Shown: in pieces, positions 55,817 through 64,000 of the stretch
How positions within the stretch are numbered: the first letter of the stretch is position 1
Layout of the letters: every line of letters starts with the position of its first letter
NCBI GenBank assembly: GCA_964220215.1
Contig: CAXPTH010000012.1
Location: forward strand, 31,170-95,169
Length of the DNA stretch: 64,000 nucleotides
Reading direction: 5' to 3'
From: Alteromonas sp.
GTDB lineage: Bacteria > Margulisbacteria > Marinamargulisbacteria > UBA6595
Made by a program: the position numbers and the translations under genes
Notes under the pieces: generated by a model
Databases searched by the model: none
What the model was told of the DNA's origin: nothing
What the model saw: the letters and a program-made list of their open reading frames with translations, nothing else

Positions 55817-56219
55817 TATTTTTAATGAACAAGTTGAGCTTAACAAAAAAGTAATCCCTACCTTGTATGAGGATATCCGCAACGACCCTGAGCTTCGAAA
55901 AATGTGGTTTCTACGGTTTGAGCGTGCCTTGCGCCAAGAATCGGCGGAAGCTGTCGACAGTTTGAGCTGGAAGTGGTGGAAAAAAGGCGAGGATAATTGG
56001 GACAACGTTAAAGTTGAATTAATTGATATGCTTCACTTTTGGGTGTCTATGTGTACAATTGTGGGTCTTGATGCCCACGATGTGATTGACTTGTATACGA
56101 AAAAAAACAAACTCAATCACCACCGCCAAAACAATGGGTATCGCGACGGCACCTACAATAAATACGAGGGGGGCGTCGAAGATAACGAGCGATTTGTCAC
56201 CCATGGCAGCCTATCATGA
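55803..56219 (+). CDS. dimeric (all-alpha) dUTPase
   Basis: [35 protein letters not shown]...EDN. Confidence 0.88.
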
Positions 56220-58303
56220 CAACCCGTTTAGATGGAAAAGCAACCGCTGAAGCCATTGTTCATGAACTGGAAACTCAGTTAGCCCAACACAGCGGACGAG
56301 CCCCGGGCCTTGCGGTTGTGTTAGTGGGCAACAACCCCGCATCCCACGCCTATGTCAAAACAAAAAAAACGATGTGTGCCCGAGTGGGCATTCAGTCATT
56401 TGACTACCAATTACCTGACACGGTCTCTCAGTCTGAGTTGGAGGCCTTGATTCATGAGCTCAATGGCAACGACCACGTGGATGGTATTTTAGTCCAACTC
56501 CCCTTACCGGATCATATTGACGAAGCCATGGTAATTAACACCATTAGCCCAACCAAAGATGTGGATGGGTTTCATCCCTATAACGTGGGGCAGTTGCTCA
56601 TTGGCACACCGGCTTTTCGCCCCTGCACACCCTATGGGGTCATCAAGCTTTTAGAACACTACGGCATTGAAACCACTGGTAAGCATGCCGTGGTGGTGGG
56701 CCGCAGCAACATTGTGGGCAAACCCATGGCTGCTTTATTGGTGCAATCCAGTGCCTACGGCAATTGCACGGTTACAATCGCCCATTCCAAAACCCAGGAT
56801 TTGCCCGCCCTTGTGCGTCAGGCAGATATTGTTGTGGCAGCAATTGGCAAGGCCCATTTTATTACCGCAGACATGGTTAAGCCAGGCGCTGTGGTGATTG
56901 ATGTGGGCATAAACTCAATCCCCGATGCCAATACCCCTAAAGGATACCGCTTGGTTGGCGATGTGGACACGGATGCAGTTGCGCCGATTGCCTCGGCCAT
57001 TACACCGGTTCCGGGTGGCGTGGGCCCGATGACGGTGGCCATGTTGATGCACAACACCATAGATGCCTTTAAGCAACGGGAATCCACCAGCCGCTCGGCC
57101 GTTTTGGAGCAAGCCTGTGCCCGATTCAAACCGATTGTATCCAAGCAATTGGATCGGGTTGAGACCTTGCTAAAGACATCCGCCGCCGTGGATTACAGCG
57201 CCCAAAAAACCATCACGATTGGCGTGTGTTACGGCGATGGCATTGGCCCTGAAATTTGTCAGCAAGCGCAGCGATTTTTAGAGCATAGTCTCCGTTCAGC
57301 GGTGCAAAGCGGACGGATTCAATTTTCAATTATTGATGGTTTAACCATTGAAAACCGTGCGGCGCACAAACAAGCCATTCCCGATTCTGTTTTGGCGCAG
57401 CTCAAAGCCTGCGATGTTATCCTCAAAGGGCCAACAACAACACCCCAAAAAGGCGACCAGTGGCCCAATATTGAAAGTGCCAACGTGGCCATGCGCCGAG
57501 AATTGGATTTATATGCCTGCGTGCGTCCAATTCGGGTGCCCAGTTTGGGCATTGATTGGGTCTTGTATCGGGAAAATACCGAAGGGTCCTACATGCTCGG
57601 CTCGCATGGCTTTCACGTTGACCCAACCGTGGGCATTGACTTCACGGTAACCACACGCCCAGGCTCTGAGCGACTCATTCGAGCGGCTTTTGAGCATGCG
57701 AAAACCAATGGGCGGTCTCGCGTCACCATTGTGACCAAATCCAATATTGTAAAAACAACCGATGGGCTATTTTCAGCCATCGCAAAAGAGATCGCGGCGG
57801 AGTATCCAGGCATTCAGTGCGATGAATGGTACATTGATATTATGACAGCCAATCTCATTAACCCTGCGACTCAATCCAAGTTTGAAGTATTGGCGATGCC
57901 CAATTTGTATGGGGATATTTTGAGTGATGAAGCGGCACAAATTCAAGGCGGTGTTGGAACAGCTGGGAGTGCCAATATTGGGGATCGATGGGCGATGTTT
58001 GAAGCGGTTCATGGCAGTGCCCCACGGATGATTGAAGAAAACCGGGCCCAGTATGCTGACCCATCTTCAATGATTAAAGCGGCGCAATTGTTGTTATCCC
58101 ACATTGGATACCCCAAAGAGGCCAAGCAATTGGAACAAGCGATGACGGTTTGTTCATTGGAAAAGGCTTTAAACTTGACGGGTCACGCCGATGGCTGTAC
58201 CGGTGCCCAATGGGCGGATTACATCATGGAAACCTACGATGACCCCCAATTACCCACACGGTATGACACGTGTTTACGCGCACTAACCCCATCGCATTCG
58301 TGA
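56216..58303 (+). CDS. folD: FolD fused to an isocitrate/isopropylmalate-family dehydrogenase
   Basis: aa 1-~288 FolD ([38 protein letters not shown]); remainder [49 protein letters not shown]. Confidence 0.9.
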
Positions 58304-59163
58304 AGCAATTTATTACCGATAGTCTGGATATCATCAAATTGCGCATTAGCCTAATGCAAGTCATTACGGTGGTGTGGGGGTATTGGTTGGCGCATCCCAA
58401 CCCAACGTGGACCATCACGGTTACTTGGCTCAGCCTGGGCACCTTTGTGGTATCTGCGGGTGTGGGCATGTTGAATCATTATTTAGAACGTCAAACGGAT
58501 CAGCACATGGTGCGAACCCAAAACCGACCCTTGCCCGGTGGGCGATTTAACCCGACATGGGTTTTTATATTGGGCCTATGCGTCACCATGGTGGGTGTGG
58601 GTATTTTATTTCGCAATGTGAACGGCGTGGCGGGGTTTATATCCATGATCACGGCTGGGCTGTATCTATTGGTGTATACCCCGTTGAAGCGTGTTTCTTG
58701 GTTAAATACATTGGTGGGAGCCTTCCCCGGGGGATTGCCACCGGTGGGTGGTTGGGCAACCGGTGCGTTAACGGCTGGGGTGTATCCCTTGGGGTTGGGA
58801 GCTTGGCTGGTGCTGGCCATTTTTATTGCGTGGCAACATCCGCATTTTTATGCGATTGGGTATTTGTATAAAGATGATTATAAACGGGCGGGCATTCATA
58901 TCTTGCCCAATAGCGATGCGACGGGTAGCCGCATGCGTCGGCATATGTTTATCAGCGTTGGGGTGTTGACCCTTGCGACAGTATGGCTGTATCGCCTGGA
59001 TGTGTTATCGATTGTGGGGCTCAGCATTGGGTTGGTCCTCAGTGCCTATTACCTCAAACAATCCCTGGATATGGTTCGCACACTAACCAACACCACAGCC
59101 AAAGCCTTGCTCAAGGGCTCCATCCTGTACCTGGTGCTGTTTATGTTGGGGTCGGTGTTATAG
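58300..59163 (+). CDS. ctaB: protoheme IX farnesyltransferase (heme O synthase)
   Basis: N..ER..D..M.RT.NRPLP.GR, YTPLKR, WQ.PHF, DY..AG. GTG 58300 overlaps the upstream TGA. Confidence 0.92.
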
Positions 59164-59169
59164 ACGCCT

Positions 59170-59210
59170 AAAAAAAAGGGAACACGCCGTAGCTGTTCCC
59201 TTTTCATTTT
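59170..59210. terminator. bidirectional intrinsic terminator (ctaB on +, tracrRNA on -)
   Basis: A8-GGGAACA...TGTTCCC-TTTTCATTTT. Confidence 0.85.
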
Positions 59211-59275
59211 GGCCATTGTTTTTCAACAATGCCGTGTTACTGGTTGGTCACTAATTTTCCCGAAAAGTGTCCTGA
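59170..59275 (-). ncRNA. tracrRNA
   Basis: 59240-59261 matches 22 nt of the crRNA-sense repeat exactly, plus GTT after one extra base. The minus-strand RNA reads anti-repeat, GAAA-loop hairpin, terminator. 5' end approximate. Confidence 0.92.
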
Positions 59276-59302
59276 GTATGATATTATCATATTTACAGTA
59301 TT

Positions 59303-62300
59303 ATGACGAATCAATCACCCCACACAAACTACCGCTTAGCACTTGATTTGGGTACAAACTCAATTGGATGGGCCGTTTTGTCCTTAGACAGCCAAAATCA
59401 ACCAACGAGCATTATTGATGGCAACAGCTTTATTTTCAATAACTCTCGAGACCCGCAATCCAAGGAGTCTCTGGCCAAAGCCCGTCGCGATGCTCGACAG
59501 GCTCGCCGTCAACGGGATCGGCGACTCAAGCGAAAAAAACAAATTATCCGCTTTTTAAGTGAAAACAACCTATTTCCTAAAGAAAAAGCCGACCAAAAAA
59601 ATTTGGAGAAACTGGACCCCTATAAACTTCGATTTGAAGCACTCAGCCGCCCCCTAGATCCGTTTGAATTGGGGCGAGTTTTATTTGCATTGGGCCAACG
59701 ACGTGGCTACAAGTCCAGTCGCAAAGATGGTCAAAAAACCGATGACGGGAAGCTCCTTAAAACACTGAATGCGTTTGAGACTACCTTTGAAGAATCCGGC
59801 TACCAAACCCTCGGGGAGTATCTGTGGAAAGAAAAACAAACCCAACTCGACGGCGATTTAAGCAACAACATCCAACGCGTATACGGTGTGCGGTCCCGAG
59901 CCGAGGCGGACCCATTCCCATATCGGGATTTGTATGAACAGGAATTTGACTGCATTCGCACCCATCAAGAACCCCACCACGCACTATCCACCGACGATTG
60001 GGAAAAAATTCGAGATATTATCTATTTTCAACGACCCTTAAAACCGGTTGAGCGGGGCTACTGCTCTATTTATTTTAATGACAAAAAACCCCGCGCTGAC
60101 CGATACCTACCCGCTGCAGAAACGTTTATCGCATGGCAAACCGTTCATAACTTACGCATTATTACCCCTAATTTTGAAAAAAAAACCTTAACCCTTGATC
60201 AAAAAAGCATAATTATCTCAAAATTAAGCGAGCAAAAAAAACTAGCCTTTAAAAAAATCAAATCGTTGTTAAACTTGGATGACGCTTGTCACTTTAACCT
60301 AGAATCAACCACCAAACAACTCACGGGCATGCCCACCCATATCGAATTCAAAAAATTAATTGACGCATGGGATTCATTCTCAGAAAGAAAAAAAAATGAG
60401 ATTGTGTCTGGGGTATTCACAAGCGAAAATCAATCTGAAATTATTCAAAAAGCGACTACCAACTGGGGCTTGTCCGAAGCAACCGCACAGGCGCTCGCCA
60501 ATCTAGATGTATCAAAATTTGCCACTGGAACCCTTCACTTTTGTACGGATGCACTCGAACAACTCAATACCCTAATGAAAAAAAATATGGACGCTTATGA
60601 GGCCAAGCAAGAACTTCAAAAAACGATTGCCCAACCAACCCATACGACTATGGCCACACTCCCATATTACGGCTATGTTATCCCAGAGGCACTAACCAAT
60701 AGTGGAAAACACCGAACAGCCTCAGCCGAAAAAGAAACCGGCATCATTGGCAACCCCACGGTTCACGTGGGGCTGAATAATATTCGGGCCGTTGTTAATG
60801 CTGTTATTGCCCGAATGGGCCATCCCCCCACTGCCATTCATTTAGAAATTGCACGCGATTTGAAGCTGAGTGCTACAAAAAAGAGCGCACTAGAAAAGTA
60901 TCAAAAAGAAAATAAAAAAACGAATGAACGCATTGCAGCGGCACTAGCCGAATTAAACCAAGCCAACACCTATACCAATCGATTAAAATACAAATTATGG
61001 GAAGAGCTGGGAGAGCCCAAATTGTGTGTGTATACCGGGAAACCCATTAGCGCAGCTCAATTGTATGGGGATGACGTTGACATTGAGCATATTTTGCCAC
61101 TGACACGCACCCACGATGATAGCCCTGCGAATAAAACATTATCATTTCGATCTGCCAATAAAGAAAAGGGCAATAAATCCCCTTTTGAAGCCTTTGGGCA
61201 TACCCTCGAATTTGAATCTATATTGCATCGCGCACAATCACTACCGAAACACAAACATTGGCGATTTAGCGAAGCAGCCATGGATCGGTTCAACGATCAG
61301 TTTGCTTTTTTAGATCGCCAGCTACACGATACCCAATACCTCTCCAAAGTGGCCAAACAATACTTGCACGCTATTTGTGACACAGTATCTGTAGTCACTG
61401 GCCAACTCACCGCAAAATTGCGCCATGACTGGGGACTTAAAAAAGATCGAGACAACCATCACCATCACTTTGTTGATGCGGTTGTTATTGGGCTGACCGA
61501 CGCATCTACCGTTCAAAAAGCCAATGTCTATAGTAAATACGATCGATTAGAAGCCATTCAATTTCCATGCCCACTTGATAAATCTGCGTTGCATAAACAA
61601 CTCGAAGCCATCACCAGCACCCGTATTGTGTATCACAAAAAAACCATCCGTAACAACGGACAACTCCACGAAGCCACCAACTATGGCTATATTCCTGAAG
61701 ATAAACGAAACCCATCAGACAAAAAATTCAATCTTGTCTATAGAAAAGCATTCGTTGATTTGACTAAAAAGGAAATTGCCCAAATTCGGGACATCAGCAT
61801 CCGCAACACCTTAATGGAACGGACCCAGGGGCTCGCAGACAACTCCAAAGAATGGAAATCCGTGTTGGACCGCTATAGTCAAGAAACCGGCATTAAGCAG
61901 ATTCGACTCCTCAAAACAGACAACCCCATCATCCCCATTCGGCACAACGGCCATACCAAGTGGGTCGTGCCGGGTAGCAGCAATCATCACATGAAGGTGT
62001 GGCAGTTGCCCAACGGAAAAGTCTCCGGGGTTATTGTTCGATTGTTGGATATTAACACCCCCAACTATGGCACGCAATCATTTCGTCCCAAAGACAAAGC
62101 CGGTCGTGAAATACCCACCGCAAAATACCTTGGTAAACTACACAAGGGAGACATGATTTCACTCATTCACAAAGGTACGCGCTGCACAGGCGTCATTAAA
62201 GGACTACGTCAAGATGGCCAAATTGTATTTAAGCCCCACAATGACGGTGGGGACAAGTCAAATGAAACCATTTCTATTTCCAAATGGATTACGGCCGAAA

Positions 62301-62353
62301 TTACCGTTCTTCAGTTAACCGTTTTGGGGGATGCTCGCCACACGCACTCATGA
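59303..62353 (+). CDS. cas9: type II-C CRISPR endonuclease Cas9 (1016 aa)
   Basis: RuvC-I LALDLGTNSIGW, Arg-rich bridge helix, RuvC-II IHLEIARD, HNH DIEHILP...DDSPANK...N..KGN, RuvC-III HHHFVDA. Confidence 0.97.
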   Translation: MTNQSPHTNYRLALDLGTNSIGWAVLSLDSQNQPTSIIDGNSFIFNNSRDPQSKESLAKARRDARQARRQRDRRLKRKKQIIRFLSENNLFPKEKADQKNLEKLDPYKLRFEALSRPLDPFELGRVLFALGQRRGYKSSRKDGQKTDDGKLLKTLNAFETTFEESGYQTLGEYLWKEKQTQLDGDLSNNIQRVYGVRSRAEADPFPYRDLYEQEFDCIRTHQEPHHALSTDDWEKIRDIIYFQRPLKPVERGYCSIYFNDKKPRADRYLPAAETFIAWQTVHNLRIITPNFEKKTLTLDQKSIIISKLSEQKKLAFKKIKSLLNLDDACHFNLESTTKQLTGMPTHIEFKKLIDAWDSFSERKKNEIVSGVFTSENQSEIIQKATTNWGLSEATAQALANLDVSKFATGTLHFCTDALEQLNTLMKKNMDAYEAKQELQKTIAQPTHTTMATLPYYGYVIPEALTNSGKHRTASAEKETGIIGNPTVHVGLNNIRAVVNAVIARMGHPPTAIHLEIARDLKLSATKKSALEKYQKENKKTNERIAAALAELNQANTYTNRLKYKLWEELGEPKLCVYTGKPISAAQLYGDDVDIEHILPLTRTHDDSPANKTLSFRSANKEKGNKSPFEAFGHTLEFESILHRAQSLPKHKHWRFSEAAMDRFNDQFAFLDRQLHDTQYLSKVAKQYLHAICDTVSVVTGQLTAKLRHDWGLKKDRDNHHHHFVDAVVIGLTDASTVQKANVYSKYDRLEAIQFPCPLDKSALHKQLEAITSTRIVYHKKTIRNNGQLHEATNYGYIPEDKRNPSDKKFNLVYRKAFVDLTKKEIAQIRDISIRNTLMERTQGLADNSKEWKSVLDRYSQETGIKQIRLLKTDNPIIPIRHNGHTKWVVPGSSNHHMKVWQLPNGKVSGVIVRLLDINTPNYGTQSFRPKDKAGREIPTAKYLGKLHKGDMISLIHKGTRCTGVIKGLRQDGQIVFKPHNDGGDKSNETISISKWITAEITVLQLTVLGDARHTHS

Positions 62354-63243
62354 TTGGGCGAATCATTGAGGTTCAAAACAGTCATTATTTATCTGTCAAA
62401 AATGGTTTTTTAGTCGTCACCGATGCTGACACCTGCGTGGGCAAGGTTCCTCTGGATGACATTGCCGCCTTAATTTTAAGTGGCCCCAATACAACACTAT
62501 CGGTTCATTTAATCAATCGATTGCATGATCACCATGCCATCATTGTTCTGACAGATGCGCAGTACCTGCCAGCCAATATTATTTGGCCCATCAACCACTT
62601 TCATCAAATTGGCGCACGACTGAAGTGCCAACTAGCGCTTCCAATCGTTTTAAAAAAACAATTATGGAAACAAATTGTGTATGAAAAGTTACTCCGTCAA
62701 AAACAAATTCTAGATACCTTATATTCAAAAACCATGGACTTTCAGACGATTATTAATAATTTGAGATCTGGCGACAGCACCAACCAAGAAGCCGTCGGAG
62801 CTAAAAAATATTGGCCACTGTTGTTTGGCCCTGATTTTAGGCGATCCGATGCAACCAACCCGATTAACCACCGATTGAATTACGGCTACACTGTTTTGCG
62901 ATCACTAATCGCACGATCGGTGGCTGCCTCTGGCTTAAACCCAGCGTTGGGCATCCACCATAAAAATGAAACCAATGCGTTTTGCTTGGTAGATGATTTA
63001 ATGGAACCCTACAGGCCATTTATTGATTATTATGTCTATAGAACTGACAATACGATCGGAACACTAACCCCCACACTAAAAAAACACATGGTGGATTATA
63101 TCTACACCAATTTTCAATGTGCCAACCAGTTCAGCCCCTTACCCAATTGTATTCATAAGACTATTTTTAGCTATGTAAACAGTTTAGAATCCAAGCAAGT
63201 TGAGCTCGTCTTCCCCAGTCTTACTATCTGTGACGATTCATGA
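62350..63243 (+). CDS. cas1: type II CRISPR integrase Cas1 (297 aa)
   Basis: VPLDDI, SGD..N.EA, LNYGYTVLR, LGIHH.N..NAFCLVDDLMEPYRP. Start ATG 62350 overlaps the cas9 stop (ATGA). Confidence 0.95.
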   Translation: MIGRIIEVQNSHYLSVKNGFLVVTDADTCVGKVPLDDIAALILSGPNTTLSVHLINRLHDHHAIIVLTDAQYLPANIIWPINHFHQIGARLKCQLALPIVLKKQLWKQIVYEKLLRQKQILDTLYSKTMDFQTIINNLRSGDSTNQEAVGAKKYWPLLFGPDFRRSDATNPINHRLNYGYTVLRSLIARSVAASGLNPALGIHHKNETNAFCLVDDLMEPYRPFIDYYVYRTDNTIGTLTPTLKKHMVDYIYTNFQCANQFSPLPNCIHKTIFSYVNSLESKQVELVFPSLTICDDS

Positions 63244-63575
63244 CCACCCCATTATCCAGTTATCAGATTATGTGGATGCAAGTTATTTTTGATATTCCAG
63301 TTAAAACAAAACCCGAACGGAAAGCAGCAACCACATTTAGAAAAACCTTGTTAAATTTGGGCTTTCATATGGTTCAATACTCTGTTTATATGAAGTACGT
63401 AACTAATAAGAAAAAACAAGCGATTCTTATTGCTAAAATCAAATCTCATTTGCCAAGTAAAGGGTCTATTTACGTTTTATCTATTACAGATAAACAATAT
63501 GAAAATATTTATGCATTTATTGGAAAAAATAAATCCCCAAGCCCAAAAAACCCAGAACAATTGACATTATTTTGA
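63240..63575 (+). CDS. cas2: CRISPR-associated Cas2
   Basis: MWMQVIFDIPV, FRK.LL..GF.MVQYSVY, ITDKQY, EQLTLF. Confidence 0.95.
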   Translation: MTTPLSSYQIMWMQVIFDIPVKTKPERKAATTFRKTLLNLGFHMVQYSVYMKYVTNKKKQAILIAKIKSHLPSKGSIYVLSITDKQYENIYAFIGKNKSPSPKNPEQLTLF

Positions 63576-63611
63576 AAAAAGCAACCATTCATTACTACGA
63601 TTTTTATGCCT

Positions 63612-63647
63612 AAAAAGTGGGTATAATAGCGGGATCTATTATACCAC
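63612..63647 (-). terminator. hairpin plus U-tract at the leader/first-repeat junction
   Basis: Perfect 10-bp inverted repeat GGTATAATAG (63620-63629) / CTATTATACC (63636-63645), followed on the minus strand by CACUUUUU. Confidence 0.55.
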
Positions 63648-64000
63648 AGGGAAAATTAGTGACCAACCAGAACGTTCTAAATGTAACCATATGTTGTTTG
63701 TTATTATACCACAGGGAAAATTAGTGACCAACCAGAACAGTCTGACGCTTGTGGTTCCTCTAGCGTTATTATACCACAGGGAAAATTAGTGACCAACCAG
63801 AACGGTATATTCAAAATTGTACAATTCACGGTCATTATACCACAGGGAAAATTAGTGACCAACCAGAACTTACAAAAGTTTGCAGGTGATTACTTAACAA
63901 TTATACCACAGGGAAAATTAGTGACCAACCAGAACTATCATATCGCCCATTAAATCTCTAATAATTAATTATACCACAGGGAAAATTAGTGACCAACCAG
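63638..64000 (-). CRISPR. type II-C CRISPR array: at least 6 repeats and 5 spacers, truncated by the window end
   Basis: Identical 36-nt repeat ATTATACCACAGGGAAAATTAGTGACCAACCAGAAC starting at 63638, 63703, 63768, 63834, 63900 and 63968 (last truncated). Spacers are 29, 29, 30, 30 and 32 nt. crRNA sense is GTTCTGGTTGGTCACTAATTTTCCCTGTGGTATAAT. Confidence 0.98.

Follow-up and report, generated by a model that had tools for sequence, protein, structure and literature searches.

A compact type II-C CRISPR-Cas9 locus of a Marinamargulisbacteria population, likely active against phages, with a short predicted PAM and a possible PAM-tuning residue

At the far end of the 64,000-nt stretch of DNA analysed here (the window, in whose positions all coordinates are given and whose last base is the end of contig C12) lies a gene for a Cas9 of 1016 amino acids (aa), together with cas1, cas2, a predicted trans-activating RNA (tracrRNA) and an array of short palindromic repeats, clustered and regularly interspaced (CRISPR). 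A first-pass annotation of the bare sequence had described the locus as a complete and active type II-C system, and the question that it raises is whether it is indeed such a system, what its spacers are directed against and which protospacer-adjacent motif (PAM) its Cas9 reads. In our judgement, and with high confidence, it is an intact canonical II-C locus that a Marinamargulisbacteria population likely uses against phages; the predicted PAM is NNNRNW, and for the allele here likely NNRARA.

On its sequence the locus is a standard, intact type II-C CRISPR-Cas9 system. The Cas9 scores 563 bits against TIGR01865 (cut-off 100) over residues 10-1009 and contains HNH_4, RuvC_III and Cas9_a domains, a single effector with a split RuvC and an HNH nuclease. 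The catalytic motifs that had been called intact are all there (D15, E515, E595/H596, N610, N619, H722 and D725); in an alignment of 14 Cas9 sequences E515, H722, D725, N610 and N619 were invariant and D15 nearly so. Equally present is the reported arrangement of a minus-strand tracrRNA and cas9-cas1-cas2, with ATGA overlaps at both the cas9/cas1 and cas1/cas2 junctions. Cas1 is of the NMENI type that goes with II-C (255 bits against a cut-off of 120), and two Neisseria-like II-C traits are seen at the sequence level, namely extended -10 promoters embedded in the repeats and a leader at the downstream end of transcription. The absence of csn2 and cas4, also claimed at first pass, has to be taken in two parts. 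Cas4 (PF01930) was absent by profile search from the 82%-complete genome, with a positive control that matched in 8/14. The Csn2 profile PF09711 gave zero matches anywhere, its positive controls included, and at the locus the 62-nt gap between cas2 and the array is too short for csn2; no open reading frame (ORF) lies in that gap, and csn2 was not seen behind the array in contiguous sister loci. Family scores, the NMENI Cas1 and a cas9-cas1-cas2 order without cas4 thus uphold the assignment to II-C. Type II-D was rejected: Cas9d shares the compact size and its profile NF049971 matches weakly, at 142 bits, far under the cut-off of 375.

Repeat and anti-repeat of the predicted tracrRNA (Table 1) would form a duplex of 25 pairs with one 1-nt bulge, and the 3′ part of the RNA folds with a z score of -5.97. 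We infer its 5′ end from a weak promoter match ending at 59286; no Rfam model matched the RNA at the gathering score. The 36-nt repeat stands five times without change in the array, with a sixth copy truncated at 64000, and every copy (6/6) ends, at the sequence level, in an extended -10 box, TG-n-TATAAT, on the minus strand. Because the window stops at the end of contig C12 the array in it is incomplete; contig C17 carries the distal part of the array, in which two further spacers and, at the very end, a degenerate repeat are found. The statement that all parts of the system are in the window therefore holds for the cas genes, the tracrRNA and the identical repeats but not for the whole array. 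The ends of contigs C5, C16, C17 (the array end), C21 and C26 carry sequences that we take to resemble Illumina adapters.

Six JGI loci carry the same repeat; in four of them the distal spacers are common and those nearest cas2 vary. The lead to the phages came from L007, a chimeric contig end, which pointed to a contig with genes for a terminase, a methyltransferase and DUF4116; from this contig and from seed scans of IMG/VR we gathered 44 overlapping phage loci (~0.5 Mb) falling into two related groups. When 20 distinct short spacers from the window strain and its sister strains were compared with this set, 16 matched phage contigs at no more than five mismatches, 15 at no more than three and seven perfectly, and all five spacers of the window were among the 16; the best match of each of 40/40 shuffled spacers had at least eight mismatches. 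Self-targeting is ruled out, as no spacer matched the host genome better than at seven mismatches. Searches of the array against GenBank phages gave chance matches only (six records, E at least 1), and seed scans with spacer 3, L002 spacer 2 and the C17 spacer likewise gave only chance matches (at least eight mismatches), the first two of these spacers finding their phage matches later in the retrieved contigs. The spacers link two related groups of tailed-phage contigs to Marinamargulisbacteria; paper searches on Margulisbacteria with CRISPR, Cas9 or phage brought up no study of the phages or the Cas9 of this lineage, or of this system.

Some irregularities were seen in the spacers and their targets. 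Between the fifth and sixth repeats of sister locus L004, both of them perfect, stands an abnormally long spacer of 157 nt, one strand of which resembles, by eye, a hydrophobic ORF of ~50 codons and for which no phage contig of the set gave a convincing match; either the acquisition was oversized or the assembly is at fault. The leader-end spacer of L005 is a hybrid, 22 nt being those of a spacer in L002, L003 and L006 and eight other bases standing at the leader junction, which suggests recombination inside the array. The targeted phages (L008 3969-4340 and L070) carry DUF4116-repeat genes with ~70-78% DNA identity to host DUF4116 genes on contig C6 near 58.8-60.0 kb, and one spacer targets a phage DUF4116 gene yet avoids the host copies.

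The flanks of the best phage matches yield a PAM prediction. Four spacers are omitted from the count: the C17 spacer and the hybrid L005 spacer, with six mismatches each, and two unmatched ones. On the 3′ side, position 4 is a purine in 15/16 flanks and position 6 is A or T in 15/16, so that 14/16 fit NNNRNW, against a mean of 5.0 in the same-strand local null; the bias has P = 0.00125 with the choice of position pair and base classes left free. A 5′-side PAM was rejected, the 5′ flank reaching a maximum of only 10, as was an artefact of codon phase or sense strand, for the protospacers fall in all codon frames and on both strands (12 sense, 4 antisense). We thus predict NNNRNW as the pooled PAM. 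All five flanks of the window's own spacers (GGAAGA, ACGAAA, GAAAAA, TAAAAA and ATGAAA) read NNRARA, the likely PAM of the window allele, whereas those of other strains have A at position 4 in 3/11 and at position 6 in 2/11, with mostly T at 6. The check proposed at first pass, a PAM from spacer hits in IMG/VR, could accordingly be carried through, and the expectation of a new PAM stands as far as spacer-derived flanks go, these being flanks and not cleavage.

What in the protein might account for the difference between strains? The PAM-interacting (PI) domain had been called divergent, and its profile indeed matched no Cas9 in the PDB at E ≤ 10; in the ESM Atlas, Cas9 C-terminal clusters came up at 0.88-0.91, which is no more than a lead. 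A profile alignment to a Pasteurella PI domain placed R969, D971 and Q973 on a D-x-x-T-x-N hairpin (hhalign probability 7.9%), a Pasteurella-type hairpin that we take, partly from the Nme1 sequence, to be the contact hairpin of Nme1. Nme1 contacts its PAM through H1024, T1027 and N1029 (PMC9433092; here and below, citations refer to the available portions of the papers). The spacing of R969/D971/Q973 equals that of the three Nme1 contacts, D971 aligning weakly to the T1027-equivalent position. Asp is found at 971 in the window Cas9, P0127, P0129 and P0223, and Asn in L005, L007, P0123, P0126, P0131 and P0004. A stands at position 6 in 5/5 flanks of D971 alleles and in 1/5 flanks of known N971 alleles (P = 0.048), or in 2/8 (P = 0.021) or 2/11 (P = 0.005) if wider sets are taken, in a post hoc test on a small sample (five D971 flanks). 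The match in contact spacing and the difference in flanks together lead us to propose that residue 971 may tune PAM position 6; the Asp/Asn polymorphism suggests a within-species PAM shift at that position.

The system is probably active, because its spacers differ between strains and match phages, and in this respect the first-pass inference agrees with the strain-specific spacers and phage matches. Contigs from RNA runs cover parts of cas9 in 4/4 runs examined, as strandless contigs in which DNA carry-over is possible. In the mechanism that we envisage, whose steps up to spacer insertion follow known II-C biology (PMC12477760), promoters within the repeats would give rise to minus-strand CRISPR RNAs (crRNAs), and these would base-pair with the tracrRNA and be loaded into Cas9. 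Cas9 would cut phage DNA beside the PAM and, with neither Csn2 nor Cas4 involved, help Cas1-Cas2 to add PAM-flanked spacers at the leader next to cas2. Residue 971 would tune position 6, Asp going with A and Asn mostly with T, and the 4.9-kb unit would be gained and lost at the cyoE 3′ end via its 20-bp direct repeats.

That last step relates to the setting of the locus: it varies between strains, as a cassette flanked on either side by a 20-bp duplicate of the cyoE 3′ end. The right copy of the repeat lies behind the array on C17, and copies are also found in L003 and L005, in the latter of which one contig spans both sides of the array. An empty site with a single copy, cyoE being joined directly to the downstream gene, occurs in congener G001, and another in a contig of run X16 (loose end at 59163). 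As in an integrative element there is a target duplication and an empty site, but no integrase or transposase of its own; PF00589 is matched by just two genes of the genome, which are on different contigs from the cassette and by eye resemble XerC/XerD. Four sister loci have extra DNA between the array and the downstream gene, which in L003 and L005 holds a unit of tracrRNA-end sequence, an internally deleted 5′ piece of cas9, another 20-bp repeat and two ORFs. At L003 433-2572, and also in L002, L005 and L006, a decayed second cas9 5′ fragment and orphan ORFs are stacked at the cyoE repeat; the orphan ORFs behind the array (~205 and 345 aa) had no Pfam match.

Several points weigh against the picture drawn so far. 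The case for RNA-guided, PAM-dependent cleavage of double-stranded DNA is an indirect one, made up of phage-matching spacers and a biased 3′ flank; the RNA contigs are without strand, DNA carry-over in them is uncontrolled and two of the runs come from a diverged strain. Two of the 16 flanks break the motif (TGGTGT and GCCATG), the motif pools strains whose Cas9 alleles differ, together with L004, of unassigned allele, and the surviving phages may carry PAM-escape changes. At residue 971 the link between allele and PAM is post hoc and small (P 0.005-0.05), three other C-terminal residues differ too (S908A, T919N and V1002I), the hairpin assignment is a weak alignment, at the 7.9% given above, and N971 strains also hold A-rich flanks; the cassette contains no recombinase. 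That the locus is a recently silenced relic, its genes intact, its protection gone and its spacers a record of past activity, nevertheless seems to us very improbable: two congeners and part of the population lack the cassette, in one cluster member the protein is broken into pieces of 438 and 567 aa on a single contig and sister strains hold the decayed second cas9 fragment behind the array, but the leader-end spacers are strain-specific, seven spacers match phages perfectly, RNA-library contigs cover the locus and all catalytic residues are kept.

Our proposal in its full form, in which the 1016-aa Cas9, from an uncharacterised branch associated with Marinamargulisbacteria, reads a short two-position PAM that D/N971 switches between the A-rich NNRARA and a form tolerant of T, approximately NNNRNT, within the species, under pressure from shared phages and in an integrase-free cyoE cassette, is tentative and, taken whole, rather unlikely. 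A chance only a little short of even falls to the same active II-C system having one relaxed PAM (NNNRNW or looser) in all strains and a neutral residue 971, so that the A-rich flanks of the window's five spacers would be a small-sample effect of A-rich phage DNA. N971 strains do hold AAAAAA and ACAAAT flanks, the local A-N-A frequency around the window's five targets is 0.08-0.13, the allele test was made post hoc with n = 5 and both D and N occur across cluster members; a single PAM is harder to reconcile with A at positions 4 and 6 in 5/5 window flanks against 1/11 elsewhere, and with the weak alignment of residue 971 to the T1027-equivalent position of Nme1. For the cassette, we give even odds to the direct repeats being the scar of one old illegitimate insertion, with spread and loss afterwards by homologous recombination, for example natural transformation. 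The want of an integrase, and of any PF00589 genes but the two XerC/XerD-like ones (by eye) elsewhere in the genome, would fit such a scar; in L003 and L005, however, successive junctions each show the repeat, and the unit that follows the array starts with the same tracrRNA-end sequence and deleted cas9 5′ piece, which points to insertions having happened more than once at a single site.

The host is probably Candidatus Marinamargulisbacteria, the name borne by cluster-mates of the flanking genes. The best-covered DNA runs are marine, estuary and salt-marsh ones, and at least half of the sequence words occur in 14/24 listed runs. The lineage is, as had been said, poorly sampled. TIGR01865 matches 3/146 genomes of the phylum (1/72 near-complete ones) and Cas1 matches 19/146. 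These counts agree with a report that Margulisbacteria rarely encode Cas proteins (PMC11390488). The nearest Cas9 homologues have 89, 53, 48, 45, 40 and 39% identity and, together with the Cas9 of same-class genome G055, form one branch (SH 100) of an 88-row FastTree, neighboured by Nitrospinia and alphaproteobacterial-type II-C enzymes; the tree is midpoint-rooted, carries a composition-bias flag and contains zero characterised enzymes. The nearest named homologues are alphaproteobacterial-type II-C Cas9s at 30-39% identity. A single-protein scan of GTDB genomes gave no match, and the cas9 ORF is full length in 6/10 cluster members. The protein is compact, as had been claimed, but 1016 aa is an ordinary size for the clade: the median is 1049 aa among 119 listed homologues (13 of ≤1016 aa) and 1063 aa among 61 full GTDB ORFs (three of ≤1016 aa), and relatives of similar size from its broad clade, with 1029-1094 aa, have been characterised in vitro (PMC7606464). 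In the homologue P0009 the HNH catalytic His is replaced by Tyr, while a 92%-identical copy in G055 (L075) retains it; this is possibly a natural nickase allele or a sequencing error. In another Margulisbacteria class, L158/L159 (G085:C3) hold a second, distantly related compact Cas9 (1024-aa open frame) with cas1 adjacent.

By comparison of sequences, none of the characterised Cas9s is close. The II-C system of Neisseria meningitidis (Nme1/Nme2Cas9, 1082 aa; PDB 6JDV and 6JE3) is alike in having cas9-cas1-cas2 only, an NMENI-type Cas1, and 36-nt repeats with an internal extended -10 box in an array read towards the leader (PMC12477760), but only the N-terminal three quarters of the window Cas9 align, its PI-domain profile matches no PDB Cas9, and the Nme PAMs lie at positions 5-8 (N4GATT and N4CC; PMC9433092) rather than, as predicted here, at 4 and 6. 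The best-scoring solved relative is GeoCas9 (PDB 8JTJ and 8UZA, chains of 1087-1095 aa; E 2e-65, residues 9-747), of which the WED/PI region is unmatched; it is a thermophile's enzyme, and its PAM, cited as N4CRAA in 10.64898/2026.08.17.745178, is long. Clade IX of Gasiunas et al. 2020 (PMC7606464) includes Msc (1044 aa, NNRRCC), Sdo (1070 aa, NRRNTT), Cme4 (1029 aa, NNNCAT), Ghc1 (1038 aa) and Ghh1 (1094 aa), and the catalogue lists enzymes of 972-1094 aa with measured PAMs, those of 972 and 978 aa in another clade. With clade IX and EHCas9 (1070 aa; PMC10281378) the window Cas9 shares a similar size, mostly purine-containing degenerate PAMs and short tracrRNAs; its repeat and N-terminal sequence resemble those of Msc Cas9 by eye, and membership of clade IX was judged by eye and not by a tree. 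Neither NNNRNW nor NNRARA occurs in the catalogue rows examined, and the repeat and Cas9 N-terminus of the window were absent from 11 supplement files of PMC7606464 in a search without a positive control. Identity was rejected with each of the 36 marine Cas9s of GOMC, Om1Cas9 among them (a control peptide was found there but none of the six peptides tried), with the three enzymes described in 10.64898/2026.08.17.745178 (1074-1092 aa, from other hosts) and, by its length, with EHCas9. The first-pass view of an uncharacterised orthologue is consistent with this, none of the solved Cas9s being close and the GOMC, EHCas9 and 10.64898/2026.08.17.745178 enzymes being different, in a search that left patents and subscription papers outside. 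It may well be that the sequence already stands in patents and large computational catalogues.

II-C orthologues are known by the thousand, and dozens of similar size have been characterised. The window Cas9 is a candidate gene editor, a genuine member of this well-populated kind and not a new kind of system. Its distinguishing features are an unusually complete spacer-to-phage map, a short testable PAM, a possible one-residue PAM polymorphism and the behaviour of its cassette. There is still use for compact Cas9s whose PAMs are short or A-rich, and since its tracrRNA, a PAM predicted from 16 protospacers and two natural alleles are at hand, this one is testable at once. If the proposal for residue 971 is true, the two alleles would be compact editors whose permissive PAMs complement each other, and would exemplify one-residue PAM evolution in nature, bearing on how PAM specificity evolves.

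Table 1. Coordinates of the locus and its cyoE boundary in the window.
Feature	Position	Strand	Remarks
cyoE (heme O synthase)	58270-59163		3′ end is the left repeat
Left 20-bp direct repeat	59144-59163	+	last 20 nt of cyoE, including the stop codon
Predicted tracrRNA	59170-59279 (approx.)	-	anti-repeat, two hairpins, U-tract; RNA ends predicted from sequence
tracrRNA terminator hairpin with U-tract	59173-59205	-	
tracrRNA hairpin	59211-59233	-	between anti-repeat and terminator hairpin
tracrRNA anti-repeat	59236-59261	-	22 nt at 59240-59261 100% complementary to the repeat
cas9	59303-62353	+	1016 aa; RuvC and HNH motifs intact
D971 codon	62213-62215	+	in the predicted PAM-reading hairpin R969-Q970-D971-G972-Q973; Asn in L005 and L007
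cas1	62350-63243	+	297 aa; type II NMENI class, cas1_NMENI (TIGR03639)
cas2	63240-63575	+	111 aa; passes TIGR01573
Leader	63576-63637		62 nt between cas2 and array; site of new spacer addition
Terminator-like hairpin	63620-63645	-	would end array transcripts
CRISPR array	63638-64000	-	36-nt repeats, five spacers; sixth repeat cut by the contig end
Spacers	63674-63702, 63739-63767, 63804-63833, 63870-63899, 63936-63967		29, 29, 30, 30 and 32 nt; all match phages

Some minor features of the locus and its surroundings remain to be recorded. The GC content drops from 0.48 upstream to 0.45 in cas9, 0.41 in cas1 and 0.31 in cas2. A palindrome, TATGATA-T-TATCATA, lies at 59277-59292 between the divergent tracrRNA and cas9 starts, possibly as an operator or as overlapping promoters, and cas9 is without an obvious Shine-Dalgarno sequence ahead of it. 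Further upstream, an ORF of 695 aa (56216-58303), full length in several cluster members, fuses FolD (methylene-tetrahydrofolate dehydrogenase/cyclohydrolase) to an isocitrate/isopropylmalate dehydrogenase domain.

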